Under the pieces are notes generated by a model. It searched no databases and had not been told where the DNA came from. It saw only the letters and a program-made list of their open reading frames with translations. A program made the translations under genes and the position numbers. From assembly GCA_051006395.1 (NCBI GenBank), contig JBPCTG010000074.1, positions 1 to 55,776 of the forward strand: a stretch of 55,776 nucleotides of DNA. Direction: 5' to 3'. Each line of letters opens with the position of its first letter. Position 1 is the stretch's first letter. Of the stretch, positions 20,347 through 30,168 are shown piece by piece. This DNA is from Candidatus Limnocylindrus sp. GTDB lineage: Bacteria; Chloroflexota; Limnocylindria; Limnocylindrales; Limnocylindraceae.

Positions 20347-20768
20347 GCGAGCGCATGCCGCGCGTCGACGAGTTGCTCCGAGAGGAGATCGGCACGCTCG
20401 TCTCCTCTTCGATGAGCGACCCACGCCTCGGGTTCGTCACGATCATCTCCGTCGAAACGACTCCAGACTTGCGTCACGCGAAGGTCTTCGTGAGCCTCAT
20501 CGGCTCCGAGGAGCAGCAGGCCGCATCACTCGCTGCGCTGCGCAGCGCGGTTCCGTTCTTGCGTACAAAGATCTCAAAGGGGCTGCGGATCAAGCGCGTC
20601 CCCGCCCTCCATTTCGCGATCGACGAGAGCGGTCTGCGCGGCGCTCGCATTCAGCAGCTGCTCGGGAGCCTCGCCGATGGCGAGACCGCTCACCCAACGG
20701 AGCTCGCGCCGCTCCCTGAGCCGACGCCACGAAGTGGACGCGTGAAGGTGGCGCCCGATGCAGAGTGA
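20343..20768 (+). CDS. rbfA: Ribosome-binding factor A
   Basis: ATGA overlap with infB. RVDELLREEI...FVTIISVETTPDLRHAKVFVS. Confidence 0.93.
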   Translation: MSERMPRVDELLREEIGTLVSSSMSDPRLGFVTIISVETTPDLRHAKVFVSLIGSEEQQAASLAALRSAVPFLRTKISKGLRIKRVPALHFAIDESGLRGARIQQLLGSLADGETAHPTELAPLPEPTPRSGRVKVAPDAE

Positions 20769-21819
20769 GCGACACGCAGAGGCAATAGCGCGCGCCGCCG
20801 CCACCCTTGCGCCGGTAGCAGCCGCGGTTGTCCCAGCGGCGCTCGTTGCCCTTCTCATTGGAGCGCGGCGCGTGTGGATCACGCCGCATGAGCGCCCCGA
20901 TGGTGATGCGCTTGGCGCCGCACTCGCACTCCAGGCGATCCTGGAACAGCGCGGCGCCGAGGTCGCGGTGATCAGCGCCGACGCCCCGGCGGCAGTCTAC
21001 GACGTGATTCCAACGATCGGTCGCGTGCTGCGCACCGCACCCGCCTGGGAGCCAGACGCGGCCATCCTCGTCGACTGTGCCGATCCGGCACGAGCGGGGA
21101 GCGCAGGGGCGTTGGTGGCTGCACTGCCTGCAACGACACCGCGGGCGATCCTCGATCACCACGTCTCGAATCACTCCGACGCGCCGACGGCATGGATCGA
21201 CCCGACCGCCGCCGCAACGTGCGAGATGGTCACCCTCCTTGGCATCGCACTTGGCGCCGATCTTGCGGCCGATAATGGGTCAATCGCTTCGGCACTCGGT
21301 GCGGGCTTGATCATGGACACGGCAACGTTCCAGCACGGCAACACGACCCCACGTACGTTGCAAGTTGCCGCGCTTCTGCTGGCGGCAGGGGCGCCGCTCA
21401 GCGAGATCTCCCGCCGCCTCTATCGCTCACGACCGCTTTCGCAGTTGCAGCTCCATGCACGCGTGCTTGGGCGCGTCGAACGCAGCGATGCTGGTCGTAC
21501 TGTTTGGGCGGCACTATCATTCGCGGATCTAGCGGCGACGGGATCGACCGTCGAAGAGAGCGAGGGGATCGTCGATGCGCTCGCGCAGGTGGTTGAGGCA
21601 GACGTCGCTCTTTTCCTCAAGGAAGACGGACCGACGGCCACGCGCCTCTCCATTCGCACAAAGGAGCTGGGACCTGATGCGACGAAGATTGCAGCGGTCT
21701 TCGGCGGCGGCGGTCACGCACGCGCTGCTGGCGCGACCATCGCCTTGCCGCTCGCGGAGGCGAGCGGTGCTGCGTTGAAGGCCGTCGCCGAGCTCCGCGC
21801 TGGCGCCAGCGCGTCGTAA
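20758..21819 (+). CDS. nrnA: DHH/DHHA1 phosphoesterase (NrnA-like oligoribonuclease/pAp phosphatase)
   Basis: HERPDGDALGA, ILDHHVSN, DHHA1 GGGGHARAAGA. This is the usual position between rbfA and truB. The start is uncertain. Confidence 0.83.
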   Translation: MQSERHAEAIARAAATLAPVAAAVVPAALVALLIGARRVWITPHERPDGDALGAALALQAILEQRGAEVAVISADAPAAVYDVIPTIGRVLRTAPAWEPDAAILVDCADPARAGSAGALVAALPATTPRAILDHHVSNHSDAPTAWIDPTAAATCEMVTLLGIALGADLAADNGSIASALGAGLIMDTATFQHGNTTPRTLQVAALLLAAGAPLSEISRRLYRSRPLSQLQLHARVLGRVERSDAGRTVWAALSFADLAATGSTVEESEGIVDALAQVVEADVALFLKEDGPTATRLSIRTKELGPDATKIAAVFGGGGHARAAGATIALPLAEASGAALKAVAELRAGASAS

Positions 21820-22796: not shown

Positions 22797-23674
22797 GCAT
22801 TCCGCCGCGCGTCATCGGCTGGGAGGAGCTGGAGTCCCGCGACCTTGACCCCCTCCGTGCAACCGGCACAGTGGTGACGATCGGGATCTTCGACGGGCTC
22901 CACCGCGGCCATCAACGCCTCCTGAGTGCGGCGGCCCGCCTCGCCGCCGCCTCGGGGCTGCAGCGACTGCACATCGGCTTCGATCCGCACCCGGACCTGC
23001 TGCTCCGCGGTAGCCTGCCGCCCCGCCTCCTCGACGATGTCGAGCTGGACCTCCGCCTCGCCGACGCGGGAGTTGACCGGCTGCTCGAGCTCCCCTTTGA
23101 CGCTGCGATGCGGGAGACCCCCTGGGAGGATTTCCTGGCCCGCCTCGTTGTGGGGGGTGGGGCGCGCAGCCTCGTCCTCTCGCCCGAATCTGCCTTCGGC
23201 AAGGGTCGTGAAGGGACCCTACCGCGCATACGTGCCTGGGGCGGCGGCCTCGGGCTGCAGGTCCACCCCGTCGCCGTGGCGCGGGCGGGCGGGACCGCCA
23301 TCAGCAGCACTCGCATCAGGGGCGCGATCGCGTCGGGCGATCTTGCCGGGGCGGCCCAAATGCTGGGGCGCCCCCACGCCGTCTCAGGACGCCTGAGGGG
23401 GTCTACCCTGCATCTTGAGGGGGGCCCAGAGGGGTTCGCCCTTCCGCCGGCGGGGGAGTATCGCCTCCGCCTTGGACACGCTGCACGGGTCGTGGGGCGC
23501 CTCCCGCTCACGGGACGCCTGGCCACGGGGCGCCTCGACCCCCGCACCGCCACCATCGAACTCCCCTCCGTCGCCCTCGAGGGTCGAGCAAGAGGGGTCG
23601 GCCGTGACGCCGAGCGGCTCGAAGATGGGGGGCAACTCCGCGCGGCCCTCCTCGCTGGACGGGTCGGCGCCTGA
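22793..23674 (+). CDS. ribF: FAD synthetase (RibF-like) with a divergent C-terminal module
   Basis: GTGA overlap with truB. The FMN adenylyltransferase motifs VVTIGIFDGLHRGHQRLL and ISSTRIR are present. The C-terminal ~100 aa lack the usual riboflavin kinase motifs. Confidence 0.8.
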   Translation: MSIPPRVIGWEELESRDLDPLRATGTVVTIGIFDGLHRGHQRLLSAAARLAAASGLQRLHIGFDPHPDLLLRGSLPPRLLDDVELDLRLADAGVDRLLELPFDAAMRETPWEDFLARLVVGGGARSLVLSPESAFGKGREGTLPRIRAWGGGLGLQVHPVAVARAGGTAISSTRIRGAIASGDLAGAAQMLGRPHAVSGRLRGSTLHLEGGPEGFALPPAGEYRLRLGHAARVVGRLPLTGRLATGRLDPRTATIELPSVALEGRARGVGRDAERLEDGGQLRAALLAGRVGA

Positions 23675-23678
23675 TCGC

Positions 23679-23684
23679 TACCCT
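23679..23684 (+). promoter_or_regulatory. Possible -10 hexamer (TACCCT) for rpsO
   Basis: TANNNT match 5 nt after the ribF stop. It would give a ~65-nt leader containing the palindrome GGGCGCCC. Confidence 0.2.
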
Positions 23685-23755
23685 AGGAATCATCCACGAA
23701 GAATGTGAGAAGCACGGGCGCCCAATGGGGCCCGAGAAGACAGGAGAGATACGCC

Positions 23756-24025
23756 TTGCCCCTCGACACCACAACCACCCAGCGGATCGTCGCTGAGAAC
23801 GGGCGACACGCCGGAGACACTGGCTCCGCCGAGGTCCAGATCGCACTCCTTTCGGAGCGGATCGAAGGCCTCACCCGCCACCTTCAGACGTTCAAGCAGG
23901 ACAATCACTCGCGCCGCGGGCTCCTCAAGCTCGTTGGTCAGCGACGCCGCCTGCTGACATTCCTCAAGCGTGAAGATGGAGCGCGCCACGCCGCGCTCAC
24001 CGAGAAGCTCGGACTTCGCCGCTAA
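23756..24025 (+). CDS. rpsO: 30S ribosomal protein S15
   Basis: TTG 23756 with AGGAGAG 7-8 nt upstream gives the canonical 89 aa (…[17 protein letters not shown]…[17 protein letters not shown]). Confidence 0.93.
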
Positions 24026-24034
24026 CCACCCCCT

Positions 24035-24048
24035 CCAGCTTCGGCTGG
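24035..24048 (+). promoter_or_regulatory. UUCG-tetraloop hairpin in the rpsO-pnp spacer
   Basis: CCAGC-TTCG-GCTGG 10 nt after the rpsO stop, followed by the palindrome CCACGTGG (24052-24059). No T-tract. Confidence 0.3.
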
Positions 24049-24097
24049 TACCCACGTGGCTGACGCGCCGTAGTGCGCGAGCCTGACAGGAGCAGAG

Positions 24098-26692
24098 ATG
24101 AACATCACGACCGTATCCGCCGAGTTCGGCGGCCGAACACTCACGATCGAGACAGGGCGCATGGCGCGCCTCGCCGGCGGTTCCGTCACGGTGCGCTACG
24201 GCGACACCATGGTGCTTGGCACCGCGAATCGCAGCGATCCGCGCCCCGGTCTCGACTTCTTCCCAATGACGATCGAGTTCGAAGAGCGCATGTACGCGGC
24301 CGGCAAGATCCCGGGCGGCTACATCAAGCGCGAAGGACGCGCCTCCGAGAACGCGATCCTTTCGGCGCGACTCACCGACCGTCCGATCCGACCGCTCTTC
24401 CCTGAGGGGTACAAGGACGACGTACAGATCGTCATCACCGTCCTCAGCCACGACCAGGAGAACGATCCGGACATCCTCGGCACGATCGCTGCATCCGCGG
24501 CGCTCACGATCTCCGAGGTCCCATTCCTCGGGCCAATCGGCGCAGTCCGCATCGGACTGATCGACGGAGCCTTCGTGATCAATCCAACCTTTGATGAGTT
24601 GAAGGGGAGCGATCTCGACCTCGTGGTCTCCGGCACGCGCGACGCAATCATGATGGTCGAGGCAGGTGCGAACCTCATCAGCGAGGCGAAGATGGCCGAG
24701 GCGATTGAATTTGGCCACAACGCGATCAAGGATCTTGTGAAGCTCCAGGAGGAGCTCCGCGAAAAGGTCGGAAAGGCGAAGCGCGTCCCGTACATTGAGC
24801 CGAACATTGACAGCGTGCTCTCGTTCGCTGAAGCGGTGAAGAGCGGCGCATCGTTCGTGATCGTTGATACAGAGACGACCGGCCTTGACCCGAAGCTCTC
24901 CGACCTCGTTGAGGTCGCTGCAGTGAAGGTGAAGGGCGGCAAGATCACCGATCGCTGGAGCACCCTCGTGAATGCTGGGAACGAGATCGTCGGCGCCCAG
25001 ATGCACGGCTTGACGACGAAGGAGGTCGCTGGAGGGGTCGCCCCGAAGGAGGCCGCCACGAAGCTGAAGGCCTTCGCCGACGGCTCGATCCTCGTTGGCC
25101 ACAACCTCGGGTTCGATGTTGGTTTCCTTGACGAGGCGCTCGGTGCCGGCCGCAGTTTTGCTGTGGAGCAGGGGAGCTACCTCGACACCTTCGTTCTTTT
25201 CAAGGAGGCGTATCCCGAGGCTGAGTCGTACAAGCTCGGTGACCTCGCCCGTACCTTCGGCGTCGCGACGACACCGAATCATCGCGCGCTCCCCGACGCG
25301 GAGGCCACAGCTGAGCTGCTGATTGCCCTTGGCGCCGAGTTGCCCGCCCGACTCCAGACGCTGAAGAGCGAGATCGCCGACTCGATCCGCGCCGCTCGTA
25401 GCGGCAAGGGCGAACCGAAGGCAATGCTTGAGGCCGCACGCCGCAAGGCGCGCGTCGGCAAGAACCTCTTCGGCTGGGCGCATAAGAAGACCGCCCGCAA
25501 CCTCACATTGAAGGAGGGGATCCGCATGGACGGCCGCAAGGTCGACGAGATCCGCCCGATCACCGTGGAGGTGGGGCTGCTACCACGCGCACACGGCTCG
25601 GGCCTCTTCACGCGTGGCGACACGCAGGCACTAAGCGTTGCAACGCTCGGGCCTGTGACCGCAGCGCAGCGACTCGACACTGTCTCGCCAGAGACGACGA
25701 AGCGCTATCTGCATCACTACAACATGCCCCCGTACAGCACCGGCGAGAACAAGCCGATGCGCGGCCCTGGTCGACGTGAGATCGGACACGGTGCACTCGC
25801 CGAGCGAGCACTCCTTCCAGTTCTCCCATCGACGGAAGAATTCCCCTACGCGATTCGCGTCGTGTCGGAGTGCGTCACGTCGAATGGATCGACGTCGATG
25901 GCCTCTACCTGCGGCTCGAGCCTCGCACTTCTCGACGCAGGCGTGCCGATCAAGGCGCCTGTTGCAGGAGCCGCGATGGGCCTCATGTCTGAGCCCGACG
26001 GCGAGTTCATCGTGCTCACCGACATCCTCGGAAAAGAGGATGCCTTCGGCGACATGGACTTCAAGGTGACGGGGACCCGCGATGGGATCACCGCGCTACA
26101 GATGGACATCAAGGTCCTTGGGATCAACGGGAAGATCATCGCGACGGGGCTGAAGGATGCGCTCACCGCGCGCCTTGCAATCCTCGACAAGATGGAGGCG
26201 GTCATCTCGACCGCCCGACCAGAGCTCTCGGACTTCGCGCCGCGCATCACCACGCTGAAGATCAATCCGGAGAAGATCCGCGACATCATCGGCAAGGGCG
26301 GCGCAGTGATCCGCAAGATGCAGGACGATTTCCAGGTGAACATCAACGTTTCGGATGACGGGACGGTGCAGATCGCCTCGGCAGACCCGGAGCGCACCAA
26401 GGGGGTCGTCGACGCAATCAACGCGATCACCAAGGAGGTCGAGGTCGGCGCGCTCTACATGGGGAAGGTCACACGGCTGATGGGCTTCGGCGCATTCGTC
26501 GAGATCCTCCCTGGTAAGGAGGGGCTCATCCGCATCGGAGAGCTTGCCGACTACCGCGTCAACACCGTCGAAGATGAGGTCGCCGTCGGCGACGAGGTGA
26601 TGGTCATCGTCACCGAAGTCGACCGCCAGGGCCGCGTAAACCTCTCGCGCCGACAGGCAATGCAGCGCCACAAGGCGACCCCGCGCGACTGA
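24098..26692 (+). CDS. pnp: Polyribonucleotide nucleotidyltransferase (PNPase), 864 aa, with an inserted DEDDh exonuclease domain
   Basis: AGGAG Shine-Dalgarno. RNase PH domain 1 (FFPMTIEFEERMYAAGKIPGGYIKREGR) and RNase PH domain 2 (RMDGRKVDEIRPI, HGSGLFTRGDTQ, GSTSMASTCG, DMDFKV). KH (GKGGAVIRK) and S1 (GKVTRLMGFGAFVE). Confidence 0.95.
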   Translation: MNITTVSAEFGGRTLTIETGRMARLAGGSVTVRYGDTMVLGTANRSDPRPGLDFFPMTIEFEERMYAAGKIPGGYIKREGRASENAILSARLTDRPIRPLFPEGYKDDVQIVITVLSHDQENDPDILGTIAASAALTISEVPFLGPIGAVRIGLIDGAFVINPTFDELKGSDLDLVVSGTRDAIMMVEAGANLISEAKMAEAIEFGHNAIKDLVKLQEELREKVGKAKRVPYIEPNIDSVLSFAEAVKSGASFVIVDTETTGLDPKLSDLVEVAAVKVKGGKITDRWSTLVNAGNEIVGAQMHGLTTKEVAGGVAPKEAATKLKAFADGSILVGHNLGFDVGFLDEALGAGRSFAVEQGSYLDTFVLFKEAYPEAESYKLGDLARTFGVATTPNHRALPDAEATAELLIALGAELPARLQTLKSEIADSIRAARSGKGEPKAMLEAARRKARVGKNLFGWAHKKTARNLTLKEGIRMDGRKVDEIRPITVEVGLLPRAHGSGLFTRGDTQALSVATLGPVTAAQRLDTVSPETTKRYLHHYNMPPYSTGENKPMRGPGRREIGHGALAERALLPVLPSTEEFPYAIRVVSECVTSNGSTSMASTCGSSLALLDAGVPIKAPVAGAAMGLMSEPDGEFIVLTDILGKEDAFGDMDFKVTGTRDGITALQMDIKVLGINGKIIATGLKDALTARLAILDKMEAVISTARPELSDFAPRITTLKINPEKIRDIIGKGGAVIRKMQDDFQVNINVSDDGTVQIASADPERTKGVVDAINAITKEVEVGALYMGKVTRLMGFGAFVEILPGKEGLIRIGELADYRVNTVEDEVAVGDEVMVIVTEVDRQGRVNLSRRQAMQRHKATPRD
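24845..25333 (+). other. DEDDh 3'-5' exonuclease domain (DnaQ/RNase T-like) nested in the PNPase all-alpha linker (about aa 250-412)
   Basis: Exo I FVIVDTETTGL (D257, E259). Exo II ILVGHNLGFDVGFL (D340). Exo III NHRALPDAEATAEL (H395, D400). It is in frame with the flanking PNPase sequence. Confidence 0.75.
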
Positions 26693-26713
26693 GACCGCAG
26701 GGTTAAGAGGGTC

Positions 26714-26742
26714 GAGGCGGTCGGGGGCGACCCCGCCGCCTC
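26714..26742 (+). terminator. Strong GC hairpin after pnp (possible terminator without a T-tract)
   Basis: GAGGCGG(t)CGGGG-GCGA-CCCCGCCGCCTC: 12 bp, one bulge, GNRA loop, 22 nt after the pnp stop. Confidence 0.45.
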
Positions 26743-26748
26743 TATACT
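26743..26748 (+). promoter_or_regulatory. Candidate -10 hexamer TATACT for a leaderless asd transcript
   Basis: TATACT-ccccgc-ATG: a 6-nt spacer to asd ATG 26755, with no Shine-Dalgarno. Confidence 0.4.
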
Positions 26749-26754
26749 CCCCGC

Positions 26755-27795
26755 ATGAGCAACGCGTCGGAGCGCCAGGGTCCCGGGCTCGTCGTAGCCG
26801 TCGTCGGCGCTACGGGTCTCGTCGGGCGCACAATGATCCAGATCCTCGAAGAGCGAAACTTCCCGGTCGCCGAGCTGCGCCCCCTCGCCGCAAGCGCCTC
26901 CGGTCGCAGGGTGCGCTTCCGGGGGGCTGAGATCCCCGTCGCCGAGGCGACGCCGGATGCTTTCGAGGGGGTTGACATCGCCCTCTTTAGCGCCGGCGCC
27001 GAGGCGAGTCTCCAGCTCGCCCCTGAGGCGGCGAAGCGCGGCTGCACGGTCGTCGACAACTCCAGTGCCTGGCGTATGGATCCCACCGTGCCCCTCGTCG
27101 TATCTCAGGTAAACCCCGAGGCACTCGACGGGCACCACGGGATCATCGCCAACCCGAACTGCTCCACGATGCAGCTGGCCCCGCTCCTTCACGCCCTGCA
27201 GGGGGCGGCCGGACTGCGACGCGTGGTCGTTGCCACCTACCAGGCGGTCTCCGGCGCAGGAGGCGACTCCGTGGAAGATTTGCGCGCGCAGCAACGCGCC
27301 CTCGTGGCGGGGGAGACCCCAGCCTCAACAACCGTGCGACACCCCGTAGTCCTGAGTCCGATCCCTGCAATCGATATCTTCCTCCCGGACGGGAGCACCA
27401 AGGAGGAGACGAAGGTCGTAAACGAGAGTCGCAAGATCCTCAGCCTCCCAGCGCTACGCATCAGCGCCACCGCTGTTCGCGTGCCGGTCGAGGTTGGCCA
27501 CTCCGAGGCGGTGCATGTTGAGCTGGAGCGACCACTCAGTCCCGAGAGCGCAAGGACAGTCTTTGCACAGACATCAGGTGTCTTTGTACAGGACGATCCA
27601 GCGACGCATACCTATCCGCTCGCAGCCGATGCGGCGGGGAGCGATGGAATTTTTGTCGGACGTGTCCGCGTTGACCAGAGTGTCGAGAATGGCTTGGCCT
27701 TCTGGGTCGTGAGCGACAATGTTCGCAAGGGAGCCGCCACCAACGCGGTAGAGATCGCAGAGCTGCTCGTCGCGCGCCGGCTGCTGCATGAGTGA
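26755..27795 (+). CDS. asd: Aspartate-semialdehyde dehydrogenase
   Basis: VAVVGATGLVGRTM, the active-site NPNCSTMQL, and SGAG. Confidence 0.95.
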   Translation: MSNASERQGPGLVVAVVGATGLVGRTMIQILEERNFPVAELRPLAASASGRRVRFRGAEIPVAEATPDAFEGVDIALFSAGAEASLQLAPEAAKRGCTVVDNSSAWRMDPTVPLVVSQVNPEALDGHHGIIANPNCSTMQLAPLLHALQGAAGLRRVVVATYQAVSGAGGDSVEDLRAQQRALVAGETPASTTVRHPVVLSPIPAIDIFLPDGSTKEETKVVNESRKILSLPALRISATAVRVPVEVGHSEAVHVELERPLSPESARTVFAQTSGVFVQDDPATHTYPLAADAAGSDGIFVGRVRVDQSVENGLAFWVVSDNVRKGAATNAVEIAELLVARRLLHE

Positions 27796-28486
27796 CGTCG
27801 CTGCACGGGATGCGGCGCTCAAGGCACTCGCAGTTGAGATCGAAGCGTGTCGCGCCTGCCCGCTCGGCTCCAGCCGCACCCGCAGTGTCCCCGGAGAGGG
27901 GAGTTCGACCGCGGAGATTGTTCTCGTCGGCGAAGGCCCAGGCGCCACAGAGGACGTCGAGGGGCGACCGTTTGTTGGCGCTGCAGGGCGACTGCTCGGT
28001 GGCCTCCTCGCGCTGATCGGCCTTAGGCGCGACGACGTTTACATCGTGAACGTAGTGAAGTGTCACCCGCCGGCGAATCGTGACCCAGAGCCCGAAGAGG
28101 TCGCCGCGTGCACCCCCTTCTTGCGCCGCCAGATGGAGATCCTCGACCCGCTCATCGTTGCGCCGCTTGGCCGCCACGCGCTGCACGCCTTTGCCCCTGC
28201 GGCAAAGATCTCCGCGGCCCACGGCAGTGTTGTTACCCCTGCATCGGGGGCACCGATCCCCACCGACGCGACGCTGCTCCCGCTCTATCACCCAGCGGCG
28301 GCGCTCCACAACGGATCGCTCCGTCCGACCCTTGAGCGTGACGTCGCGGCACTCGCCCGCGCCCTCGACCCCGCACGTGCCCGCCGGGCGGCTGCCCGCG
28401 GAGCGGGTGGGGCGGCTACCCTGTCCCAGATGCAGGAGTCCCCGGAGCAGCATCAGCTCCGACTCTTCGAAGGAGAGAACCCTTGA
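27788..28486 (+). CDS. Uracil-DNA glycosylase, family 4
   Basis: 8-nt overlap with asd (ATGAGTGA). CRACPL, GEGPG, GRPFVGAAG, VKCHPP. Confidence 0.88.
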   Translation: MSDVAARDAALKALAVEIEACRACPLGSSRTRSVPGEGSSTAEIVLVGEGPGATEDVEGRPFVGAAGRLLGGLLALIGLRRDDVYIVNVVKCHPPANRDPEPEEVAACTPFLRRQMEILDPLIVAPLGRHALHAFAPAAKISAAHGSVVTPASGAPIPTDATLLPLYHPAAALHNGSLRPTLERDVAALARALDPARARRAAARGAGGAATLSQMQESPEQHQLRLFEGENP

Positions 28487-30168
28487 GCCGACGACCTCAA
28501 CGCGCCCCTGTCGGGGGCCCGCCGTTTCGCTTTATCCCGCTCGGCGGGATGGGGGAGATCGGCAAGAACCTCTACGTCTATGAGTACGGCGACGAGATCA
28601 TCCTCGTTGATTGCGGCCTCGCCTTCCCCGACGAGACGACCCTCGGGGTCGACATCATCATCCCTGACGTCACCTACCTCCGCGAGCGCAAGCGTCAGAT
28701 GAAGGCGGTGGTGATCACCCACGCGCACGAGGACCATATCGGCGCCCTCCCGCACATCCTGCCGGAGTTCCCGGGGGTGCCCGTCTACGCGAGCACACTC
28801 GCCCGCGGGCTTCTCGCCAACAAGCTGAAAGAGGCGAAGGTCTCTGCGAATCCACTGCGCAAACTCGATCCAGGCGACCGACTCGAACTCGGCGTCTTCA
28901 CGATCGAGCCGTTCCGCGTCGGGCACTCGATCCCTGACGCGATGGGGCTCGCGATCCACACGCCGGTCGGAACCGTGGTTCACACTGGCGACTTCAAATT
29001 CGACCAGACGCCGGTTGATGGACGAGGGACCGACTTCGACATCCTTGCCAGGCTCGGCGCCGAAGGGGTCATCGCCCTCGTCTCCGACAGCACACGTGCT
29101 GAGGTACCCGGCTACACGCCGAGCGAGCGCGTTGTTGGTGAAACCTTCCGCGGGATCATGAGCGAGGCGCAGGGGCGTGTGATCGTCGCCACCTTTGCGT
29201 CGAACATCGCACGCATCCAGCAAGTGATCGATGCCGCCGAGGCGCTCGGGCGTCGCGTCGCCGTCGTTGGCCGCTCAATGGAACAGAATTCGAAGATCGC
29301 GCAAGAGCTCGGCTACCTCACCCTGAAGCGCCCGTTCATCTCCAAAGAGGAGATCGCGCGTCGCGTCAAAGAGCCGCTCGTTATAGCAACCACTGGAGCC
29401 CAGGGCGAACCGATGGCTGGCCTCGCAAAAATGGGGAACGCAGAGCATCGCAACGTCGAGATCCAGCTCGGCGATACCGTGATCGTCTCCGCATCGCCGA
29501 TCCCCGGAAACGAGGAGGCGGTCGGTCGCACGATCGACAATCTCTTCCGCAGCGGCGCCAACGTGATCTATCACTCCATCGCACCGGTGCACGTTTCCGG
29601 CCACGCCTCGCGCGAGGAGTTGAAGATGATGATCTCGCTCACCAAGCCGAAGAACTTCGTACCGATGCACGGCGAGATGCGGATGCAGGTCGCCCACGGT
29701 CGCCTCGCAACCGAAATGGGCGTCTCGCCGCAGAACGTCTTCATCACTGGTAATGGCGTGCCGATCGAGTTCCACGCCGACGGGAGCGCCCGACGACGAC
29801 CAGCGATCGCCCATGGCCAGGTGTTCGTCGATGGATCTTCGGTTGGCGAGATCAGCGAGGTGGTGCTACGCGACCGACGCACGCTTGCCGACGACGGCAT
29901 CGTCGTAGTGGTCGCATCGATCGATCGCAAGAGCGGTCGCCCGATCGGTCGCCCCGCGCTCGTCACGCGCGGATTCCTGAACGGTGACGAAGACAACAAG
30001 CTCGTAGAGCAGGCGATCGAGATTACGCTTCGCGCACTCCAGGCGAAGGGGGACCGCTCCTCTGAGCCTGCGCTCATCAAGGCCCAGATCAGCGAGGCCG
30101 TCTCGCGCTTCCTCCACCGCGAGACGAGGCGACGCCCGCTCGTCGTTCCGGTGGTCGTGGAGGTCTAG
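28483..30168 (+). CDS. rnj: Ribonuclease J
   Basis: The TTG start overlaps the udg stop (TTGA), with AGGAGAG 5 nt upstream. MBL motif THAHEDHIGALP, beta-CASP and C-terminal domain. Confidence 0.93.
   Translation: MSRRPQRAPVGGPPFRFIPLGGMGEIGKNLYVYEYGDEIILVDCGLAFPDETTLGVDIIIPDVTYLRERKRQMKAVVITHAHEDHIGALPHILPEFPGVPVYASTLARGLLANKLKEAKVSANPLRKLDPGDRLELGVFTIEPFRVGHSIPDAMGLAIHTPVGTVVHTGDFKFDQTPVDGRGTDFDILARLGAEGVIALVSDSTRAEVPGYTPSERVVGETFRGIMSEAQGRVIVATFASNIARIQQVIDAAEALGRRVAVVGRSMEQNSKIAQELGYLTLKRPFISKEEIARRVKEPLVIATTGAQGEPMAGLAKMGNAEHRNVEIQLGDTVIVSASPIPGNEEAVGRTIDNLFRSGANVIYHSIAPVHVSGHASREELKMMISLTKPKNFVPMHGEMRMQVAHGRLATEMGVSPQNVFITGNGVPIEFHADGSARRRPAIAHGQVFVDGSSVGEISEVVLRDRRTLADDGIVVVVASIDRKSGRPIGRPALVTRGFLNGDEDNKLVEQAIEITLRALQAKGDRSSEPALIKAQISEAVSRFLHRETRRRPLVVPVVVEV

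Follow-up and report, generated by a model that had tools for sequence, protein, structure and literature searches.

A DEDDh exonuclease domain nested in the polynucleotide phosphorylase of Limnocylindria (Chloroflexota)

Few RNA enzymes have been studied as thoroughly as polynucleotide phosphorylase (PNPase), whose layout of five domains has been treated as invariant from bacteria to human mitochondria. The canonical enzymes of known structure (Escherichia coli, 3GCM/3CDI; Caulobacter crescentus, 4AIM; Streptomyces antibioticus, 1E3P; and the staphylococcal 5YJJ) share the order first RNase PH-like core (PH1), helical domain, second RNase PH-like core (PH2), KH and S1. The pnp gene described here is encoded in a 55,776-nucleotide stretch of Candidatus Limnocylindrus sp. 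(contig JBPCTG010000074.1; the whole stretch is hereafter called the window). Its product is alike in domain order, in passing the PNPase equivalog score and in its phosphorolytic motifs, and the gene lies in the same rpsO-pnp locus. It differs in that a DEDDh segment of ∼173 residues stands where canonical PNPases have ∼25 helical-domain residues, and no solved PNPase (≤730 residues) carries such an insert.

Elsewhere, phosphorolytic and DEDD-type hydrolytic decay of 3' ends are coupled only in trans, as in PNPase with REXO2/Orn, the Caulobacter degradosome with RNase D, and the exosome with Rrp6. The eukaryotic RNA exosome joins the PH-like ring of Exo9, with its S1/KH entry, to the hydrolytic 3'-5' exonucleases Rrp6 (DEDD-y) and Rrp44. 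The Limnocylindria fusion is alike in logic, since in both a PH-type ring is paired with hydrolytic exonucleases, one of those of the exosome being of the DEDD superfamily; it differs in being bacterial and covalently linked, in retaining its phosphorolytic sites, and in using a DEDD-h domain of the DnaQ/PolC type rather than the DEDD-y type of Rrp6/RNase D. In human mitochondria, the 4-5-nt products of PNPase-SUV3 are hydrolyzed by a DEDDh exonuclease (REXO2/Orn), and their clearing keeps PNPase-dependent decay efficient (PMC7261184). That system, however, acts in trans, and REXO2/Orn is dimeric and dinucleotide-specialized. In the Caulobacter RNA degradosome, PNPase is physically associated with a DEDD-family 3'-5' exoribonuclease, RNase D (PMC4245959), but the association is non-covalent, via the RNase E scaffold, and RNase D is a DEDD-y enzyme with HRDC domains. 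The Limnocylindria protein would be a ‘Rosetta stone’ that joins the phosphorolytic and the DEDD-type hydrolytic route of 3' decay covalently.

Architecture of the fusion protein

The pnp open reading frame (ORF; 24098..26692, on the forward strand, as are all features below unless stated otherwise) starts at the first ATG following a stop and encodes 864 residues plus the stop codon. Its product is the housekeeping polynucleotide phosphorylase of a Limnocylindria bacterium: it scores 929.2 bits against the TIGR03591 equivalog (cutoff 525) and 923.3 bits against NF008805 (NCBIfam; PNPase family TIGR03591 / PRK11824; cutoff 471), in both cases in two stretches that flank the insert, and it matches the solved PNPases in the PDB with a best E-value of 1.6e-210.

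Between these two stretches, residues 251 to 412 (24848..25333) form a nested DnaQ-like DEDDh 3'-5' exonuclease domain, assigned from Pfam, from the PolC exonuclease structure 2p1j, from Foldseek and from AlphaFold2 (AF2) modeling. PF00929 (RNase_T) matches residues 254 to 408 over model positions 1 to 164 of 164 (E=1e-26, 94.9 bits against a cutoff of 24), a resemblance far beyond chance. Alignment with the PNPase structure 8zaw pairs residues 7 to 241 with 20 to 253 and residues 415 to 852 with 279 to 713, so that ∼173 residues replace ∼25 and the net gain is ∼148 residues. The three DEDDh motifs follow one another in order: Exo I is FVIVDTETTGL (24854..24886; D257 and E259), Exo II is ILVGHNLGFDVGFL (25088..25129; D340), and Exo III is NHRALPDAEATAEL (25277..25318; H395 and D400), which provides the DEDD-h signature. 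All of these residues align with the catalytic motifs of 2p1j (the Thermotoga PolC exonuclease domain), 9qpc (PolC) and 8zef (DinG).

Around the insert, the PNPase domain order is that of the canonical enzyme, with two RNase PH-like cores, a helical domain that is interrupted yet retained, and then KH and S1. PH1 (residues 1 to 215, 24098..24742) is covered by RNase_PH and by RNase_PH_C (residues 145 to 208), aligns over residues 7 to 229 with residues 21 to 243 of 5yjj, and contains GGYIKRE, the equivalent of the FFRR loop. PH2 (residues 471 to 700, 25508..26197) contains the second RNase_PH stretch (residues 484 to 617) and carries RREIGHG (559), SNGSTSMA (595) and GDMDFKV (651), all aligned to solved PNPases; RRxIGHG, the Ser-rich phosphate loop and GDMDFK of PH2 are the phosphorolytic active-site motifs of PNPases. 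The KH domain (residues 718 to 774, 26249..26419; KH_1, E=3.4e-9) and the S1 domain (residues 781 to 852, 26438..26653; S1, E=7.9e-16) complete the protein. One conserved polypeptide therefore holds two catalytic centers, each with all of its signature residues.

The helical domain is split into an N-terminal part (residues 216 to 250, 24743..24847), which contains the end of a predicted helix at 196-224 and a short helix at 238-248 and is followed to residue 241 by the 8zaw alignment, and a C-terminal part (residues 413 to 470, 25334..25507), delimited by the model, by invariant columns and by the resumption of the 8zaw alignment at residue 415. The full-length AlphaFold model has a predicted local distance difference test (pLDDT) of 69.9 and a predicted template modeling score (pTM) of 0.69, and a model of the segment from residue 216 to 478 reaches 83.2 and 0.81, respectively; the insert itself is a block with pLDDT of mostly 76-95 in the former and 66-95 in the latter. 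In the prediction, helices 196-224 and 238-248 lead through a linker of four residues to the first DEDDh strand (253-260), after which comes the remainder of the alpha/beta fold. At the other end, the Exo III helix bearing H395 and D400 continues unbroken as helix 397-435 into the PNPase helical domain in both models and is followed by helices 440-451 and 455-473. Since both junctions are short or rigid, the models imply that the DEDDh domain would be held in a fixed orientation relative to the PNPase core rather than hanging from it as a tethered bead. When the full-length model is used as a Foldseek query, only canonical PNPases of ≤730 residues are returned (E down to 2e-56). No GC or other compositional break marks the insert in the window.

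This picture agrees with the first-pass annotation of the window, which had read the gene from its letters as a genuine PNPase with a complete DEDDh domain nested in frame in its helical linker. The equivalog score, domain order, intact site motifs and structural alignment secure the host. The interval 24845-25333 named there (residues 250 to 412) is exactly the insert, and its Exo I, Exo II and Exo III residues were given correctly. The resumption of the helical linker is borne out by the 8zaw alignment and the helices predicted from residue 397 onward, and Pfam finds two RNase_PH stretches, separated by RNase_T and followed by KH_1 and S1.

Two local features of the protein are worth recording. 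Directly after the insert, residues 446 to 470 (25433..25507) are strongly basic and near-invariant in the clade (EAARRxARVSKxLFGLVHKKTVR), with R449, R452, K455, K463, K464 and R467 invariant across it; this segment might bind nucleic acid on a surface lying between the DEDDh domain and the PH2 pore. Within the DEDDh domain, the window protein has two extra loop residues (355 and 356, 25160..25165) that are absent from 60/61 other species genes and are a marker of the Limnocylindrus-like lineage.

Distribution and conservation across Limnocylindria

The fusion is a property of a whole clade. In a search of 5.8 billion proteins, the best 120 clusters were examined, and all of them combine PF00929 with PH, KH and S1 domains, at 69-100% identity to the window protein and with lengths of 858-871 residues (one of 890). 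Their source assemblies are from ENA, JGI, NCBI and Logan, and those with a taxonomic name belong to Candidatus Limnocylindrus, Limnocylindrales or Chloroflexota. When an alignment of the inter-PH segment was used to scan the species genomes of GTDB, at least 526 stretches were confirmed by tblastn, a figure obtained with a generic pattern and possibly including some other DEDD proteins. With one exception, the best 80 loci examined lie in metagenome-assembled genomes (MAGs) of Chloroflexota/Limnocylindria from soil, groundwater, fen and lakes, several of them on Mb-scale long-read contigs. At least 77 species-level genomes carry the fusion, and Limnocylindria ranks as a class within Chloroflexota; the most divergent fusion genes among the matches listed are still 68% identical to the window protein.

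The exception, a 2.2-kb contig (DATLVO010000031.1) with a fragment of a fusion-type pnp, sits in a bin labeled Verrucomicrobiia and is probably a mis-binned Limnocylindria contig. Two further loci, on contigs CAYMTJ010000019.1 and CAYMTJ010000068.1 of a single MAG (L033 and L034), encode identical pnp fusions (858/858 residues); they are assembly or bin redundancy and not separate gene copies.

In a phmmer search of 1.84 billion representatives at 50% identity, the fusion appears as one full-length representative (P0011) together with truncated or frameshifted fragments, and hits weaker than about E=1e-30 are generic DEDD proteins. No independent PNPase-DEDD fusion from another phylum occurs among the best 150 phmmer hits (down to ∼92 bits). 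Six sequences with partial RNase_T matches (P0134, P0149, P0156, P0179, P0127 and P0130) look at first sight like decayed inserts, but the alignment reveals Arg/Pro-rich out-of-frame stretches, which identifies them as frameshifted gene calls. A 1045-residue protein (P0140, match at 238-436) was rejected as a second type of PNPase fusion, being a triple-DEDD/GIY-YIG/UVR protein.

Both catalytic centers are preserved across this range. In a set of 78 sequences (77 genes from the loci and the window gene; 61 of the genes are complete), D257, E259, D340 and H395 are present in 78/78 and D400 in 77/78, and across the 120 protein clusters the five DEDDh catalytic residues are conserved in at least 99%. 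The PH2 motifs are equally constant: RR[DE]IGHG, [SG]NGSTSMA and GDMDFKV are intact in 61/61 complete fusion genes. The sole departure at D400 is found in one locus (L070, VBEC01000026.1), in which GAC is replaced by CAT to give histidine (HRAAPHAEATA); this could be a truly inactivated lineage or a MAG consensus error.

Nei-Gojobori dN/dS values pooled over 1829 pairs are 0.16 for PH1, 0.19 for PH2, 0.17 for KH-S1, 0.34 for the DEDDh insert, and 0.62 and 0.51 for the helical segments that flank it; because dS is only ∼0.5 at ∼72% amino-acid identity, probably reflecting compression by codon bias at third positions (GC3), the ranking of the regions is usable and the absolute values are unreliable. 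On this ranking, the insert is clearly under purifying selection, tighter than the helical domain that hosts it and looser than the cores. The insert evolves ∼1.5 times faster than the core, and the pairwise distances of the two co-vary (Mantel r=0.74, with 0/999 permutations as high). Both junctions are gap-free in 61/61 complete genes. Taken together, purifying selection, insert-core covariation and gap-free junctions indicate, from these sequence comparisons, a single ancestral insertion that has been passed on vertically with pnp.

No account of a PNPase with a DEDD domain nested in it turned up in full-text literature searches, in line with the first-pass annotation, which had regarded the architecture as undescribed. 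That annotation had also allowed that the arrangement might prove to be already widespread and characterized: it is widespread, within one class, and no characterization was found in those searches. The fusion is thus a new clade-wide architecture made from two well-known domains, and its sequences are already public, where they are labeled either simply PNPase or, in error, epsilon-family exonuclease. JGI/IMG in particular labels many full-length PNPase fusions (among P0019-P0120) ‘DNA polymerase III epsilon subunit family exonuclease’, a systematic misannotation due to the nested DEDDh domain, which accounts for the recurrence of this name. The architecture concerns an entire class of abundant, uncultured soil and freshwater bacteria. 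By placing a second nuclease center in the least-understood part of PNPase, it also amounts to a natural experiment on the role of the helical domain and on the fate of limit products.

Domain type and proposed function

The insert is a monomeric DEDDh module of the DnaQ/PolC type, close to those of PolC, DinG and epsilon, as sequence profiles, pairwise matches and Foldseek all indicate. Among profiles, it is matched best by PRK07883 (‘DEDD exonuclease domain-containing protein’), by the exonuclease segment of PolC and by the DinG exonuclease. The closest sequence relative is the PolC exonuclease (2p1j, E=1.2e-23, ∼31% identity), and the nearest non-PNPase relatives, at 37-45% identity, are DEDD modules fused to GIY-YIG, to PolC PHP/polymerase, to FAN1-HTH/VRR-NUC, to the DinG helicase or to BRCT. 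A Foldseek search with the model of residues 216 to 478 returns Staphylococcus aureus DinG, PolC (root-mean-square deviation, rmsd, 2.9 Å), a CRISPR-associated DnaQ domain, the Pol III epsilon subunit (2ido, TMt 0.82, rmsd 2.3 Å) and ExoX, placing the insert in the RNase H-like alpha/beta DnaQ fold. The matches to DinG, PolC and epsilon outrank those to RNase T, to TREX1 and to Orn, the last of which stands at rank 30 (TMq 0.41).

None of the named families describes the insert more closely. The Pol III epsilon subunit (DnaQ proper) is rejected on score (65.5 bits against a cutoff of 222.7 for TIGR01406, and 62.6 against 196 for NF004316), and also because the domain is internal to a PNPase and devoid of the epsilon C-terminal segment. 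PolC is rejected likewise (NF001688, 120 bits against 873; TIGR01405, 112.6 against 1043), as only the exonuclease segment is matched and the PHP and polymerase domains are absent. For ExoX and the other equivalogs, the scores fall far under the cutoffs. The RNase T/Orn (REXO2) branch is set aside as well, since RNase T (2f96) matches at E=7e-4 with no significant stretch and Orn is distant in Foldseek; this result lowers the case for an Orn or RNase T identity and leaves an action on RNA unaffected.

Modules of this type are promiscuous in fusions. In PolC (2P1J, 9QPC), the same monomeric DnaQ fold is nested inside another catalytic domain of a nucleotidyl-transfer enzyme, the PHP domain (as in P0185). 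PolC, however, is a replicative DNA polymerase, whereas the host here is a template-independent RNA phosphorylase/polymerase without PHP, polymerase or clamp-binding elements. The DinG-exo helicase, Cas2-DEDDh, PRK07883 DEDD-GIY-YIG and FAN1/VRR-NUC-DEDD proteins carry the same mobile exonuclease module (37-45% identity) on nucleic-acid machines; in those it is terminal and attached to DNA-repair, replication or CRISPR proteins, whereas in PNPase it is internal and part of an RNA-decay enzyme.

From its residues, the DEDDh domain is very probably a functional nuclease. As to its role, we lean towards an active hydrolytic DEDDh 3'-5' exonuclease that cooperates in cis with PNPase in RNA 3'-end decay. 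The enzyme would keep the PNPase trimer, and the ring would then bear its three hydrolytic DEDDh sites on the far side from the S1/KH face, where RNA enters, each beside the side pore to a phosphorolytic site. The helical domain of PNPase lies on the face of the torus opposite S1/KH, is dynamic and forms part of the pore, which has been proposed as a second route to the active site for nucleoside diphosphate (NDP) and phosphate traffic (Nurmohamed et al. 2009, PMC2723993). As the helical domain is located there (PMC2723993), the three DEDDh domains should stand on this distal face beside the pores. The domain would act as a metal-dependent, phosphate-independent exonuclease on 3' ends, in cis with PNPase, and its most likely job would be to hydrolyze the short oligonucleotides left by phosphorolysis and/or 3' ends that PNPase is unable to take hold of or to degrade completely. 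The outcome would be nucleoside monophosphates besides NDPs, and decay independent of phosphate supply. The human PNPase-SUV3 degradosome offers a precedent, for its shortest products are tetranucleotides, which the DEDDh enzyme REXO2 converts to mononucleotides, and an excess of nanoRNA inhibits it (PMC7261184). The exonuclease domains of DnaQ-type DinG proteins can degrade RNA, and S. aureus DinG degrades single-stranded RNA (ssRNA; PMC12525004).

Several points weigh against cooperation in RNA decay. The insert is most closely related to modules found in DNA enzymes (PolC proofreading, DinG, DEDD-GIY-YIG, FAN1/VRR-NUC-DEDD and Cas2-DEDDh), RNase T and Orn are only distant matches, and the sequence of a DEDDh domain does not reveal its sugar specificity. 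A dedicated nanoRNase may already exist in the organism, given the NrnA-like DHH/DHHA1 gene in the same gene string, which itself scores far below the NrnA cutoff. The kinship with DNA enzymes and this neighboring gene also temper the roles suggested in the first-pass annotation (removal of short oligonucleotides, action on structured ends, trimming of tails), which had been offered there as conjecture. The full-length model, with the pLDDT and pTM given above, is of only moderate confidence.

A bolder and more doubtful extension of the cooperative reading sees the Limnocylindria PNPase as a self-contained bacterial ‘exosome-like’ machine that degrades RNA fully to mononucleotides, in a phosphate-flexible manner, as one homotrimer. 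Either RNA that enters at the S1/KH face and is threaded through the ring, or limit oligonucleotides that exit through the helical-domain pore, would pass directly to the three distal DEDDh sites. If true, this would be a covalent counterpart of the pairing of ring and hydrolase in the exosome and would give a handle on the helical domain and its side pore.

It is unlikely that the domain is instead directed at DNA or RNA:DNA hybrids, for DNA 3'-end processing, repair or R-loop removal rather than bulk RNA decay. The best hidden Markov model, sequence and structure matches are all to modules of DNA metabolism (PRK07883, PolC, DinG, CRISPR DnaQ/Cas2-DEDDh, epsilon and ExoX), and activities on DNA ends have been reported for the PNPases of Bacillus and mycobacteria. 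A uracil-DNA glycosylase gene (udg) is found two genes downstream of pnp, a linkage that is weak because asd stands between them. The DEDD domain of Bacillus subtilis DinG prefers single-stranded DNA and the RNA strand of hybrids and accepts ssRNA only with Mn2+ (PMC12525004). Yet the host is a single, syntenic rpsO-pnp housekeeping gene of RNA decay with S1/KH and the phosphorolytic site intact, and kinship among DEDDh domains does not predict sugar specificity, as the ssRNA-degrading DinG of S. aureus illustrates (PMC12525004). REXO2 likewise does not discriminate between RNA and DNA dinucleotides (PMC6900737), which again counts against a DNA-directed role.

Less probable still is a domain that opposes or edits the polymerase reaction of PNPase, trimming the heteropolymeric 3' tails made at low phosphate and high NDPs. 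In this variant of the cooperative reading, the domain would back up PNPase without needing phosphate, so that net flux stays on the side of degradation in oligotrophic habitats poor in phosphate. The nesting of this domain type in polymerases as an editing exonuclease (in PolC, RNase_T within PHP), the origin of the clade in soils, groundwater and lakes (according to record titles) and the rigid predicted connection of the DEDDh domain to the helical domain, which gates access of NDPs and phosphate, are all compatible with tail trimming. The idea is nonetheless purely inferential, as no sequence feature separates tail trimming from general co-degradation.

A dead DEDD fold, kept as a non-catalytic structural, regulatory or RNA-binding module, is highly improbable: the D400H substitution in one locus and the faster evolution of the insert than the core fit it, but the catalytic residues are kept in 77-78/78 sequences, with ≥99% conservation across the 120 clusters, and the apparent degenerate variants are the frameshifted gene calls described above. 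Nothing was found in favor of an artefact, whether a chimera of assembly or a mobile or intein-like element recently inserted in one genome, and it has practically no likelihood, given that the same in-frame architecture recurs in each of the 120 best clusters and at 80 loci of independent MAGs. A chimera, which the first-pass annotation had named as the finding's possible undoing, is excluded by the independent assemblies of at least 77 species and the 120 protein clusters that carry the insert. An intein or mobile element is rejected, as that annotation had already surmised from the junctions, because Pfam finds only PNPase and DEDD domains and no Hint, splicing or homing-endonuclease domain, 120/120 clusters carry the insert, the gap-free junctions are fixed without a compositional break, and insert and core are co-inherited.

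Genomic context of the pnp locus

The genes around pnp are arranged in the order nusA, infB, DHH/DHHA1, truB, ribF, rpsO, pnp, asd, udg, rnj (RNase J) and ftsK, an order kept in most of the 50 related loci with full flanks. The gene for ribosomal protein S15, rpsO (23705..24025; Ribosomal_S15, E=1.9e-31), lies directly upstream of pnp and adjoins it in 75/80 related loci. This adjacency, together with the conserved gene order, marks the locus as a classical housekeeping rpsO-pnp locus. A 597-residue ORF on the reverse strand (23690..25483), antisense to rpsO and the first half of pnp, is dismissed as a long-ORF artefact of high GC content lying across two conserved genes. Around pnp (23500-27000), neither promoter-like nor terminator-like sites were detected, a scan of the whole 55.8-kb window at Rfam gathering thresholds returned no RNA family, and the window contains no second DEDD domain.

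Two neighbors are related to RNA decay or nucleotide turnover. Between infB and truB, a 353-residue DHH/DHHA1 protein (20758..21819) resembles NrnA but reaches only 85 bits where the NrnA equivalog requires 350; by sequence, it may be a nanoRNase or a pAp phosphatase, and its gene is syntenic in 39/50 of the full-flank loci. Three genes downstream of pnp, rnj (28483..30168) encodes an RNase J with beta-CASP and RNase_J_C domain matches. The arrangement pnp, asd, udg, rnj is kept in 46/50 full-flank loci, so that two major RNA-decay enzymes stay close to each other throughout most of the clade.

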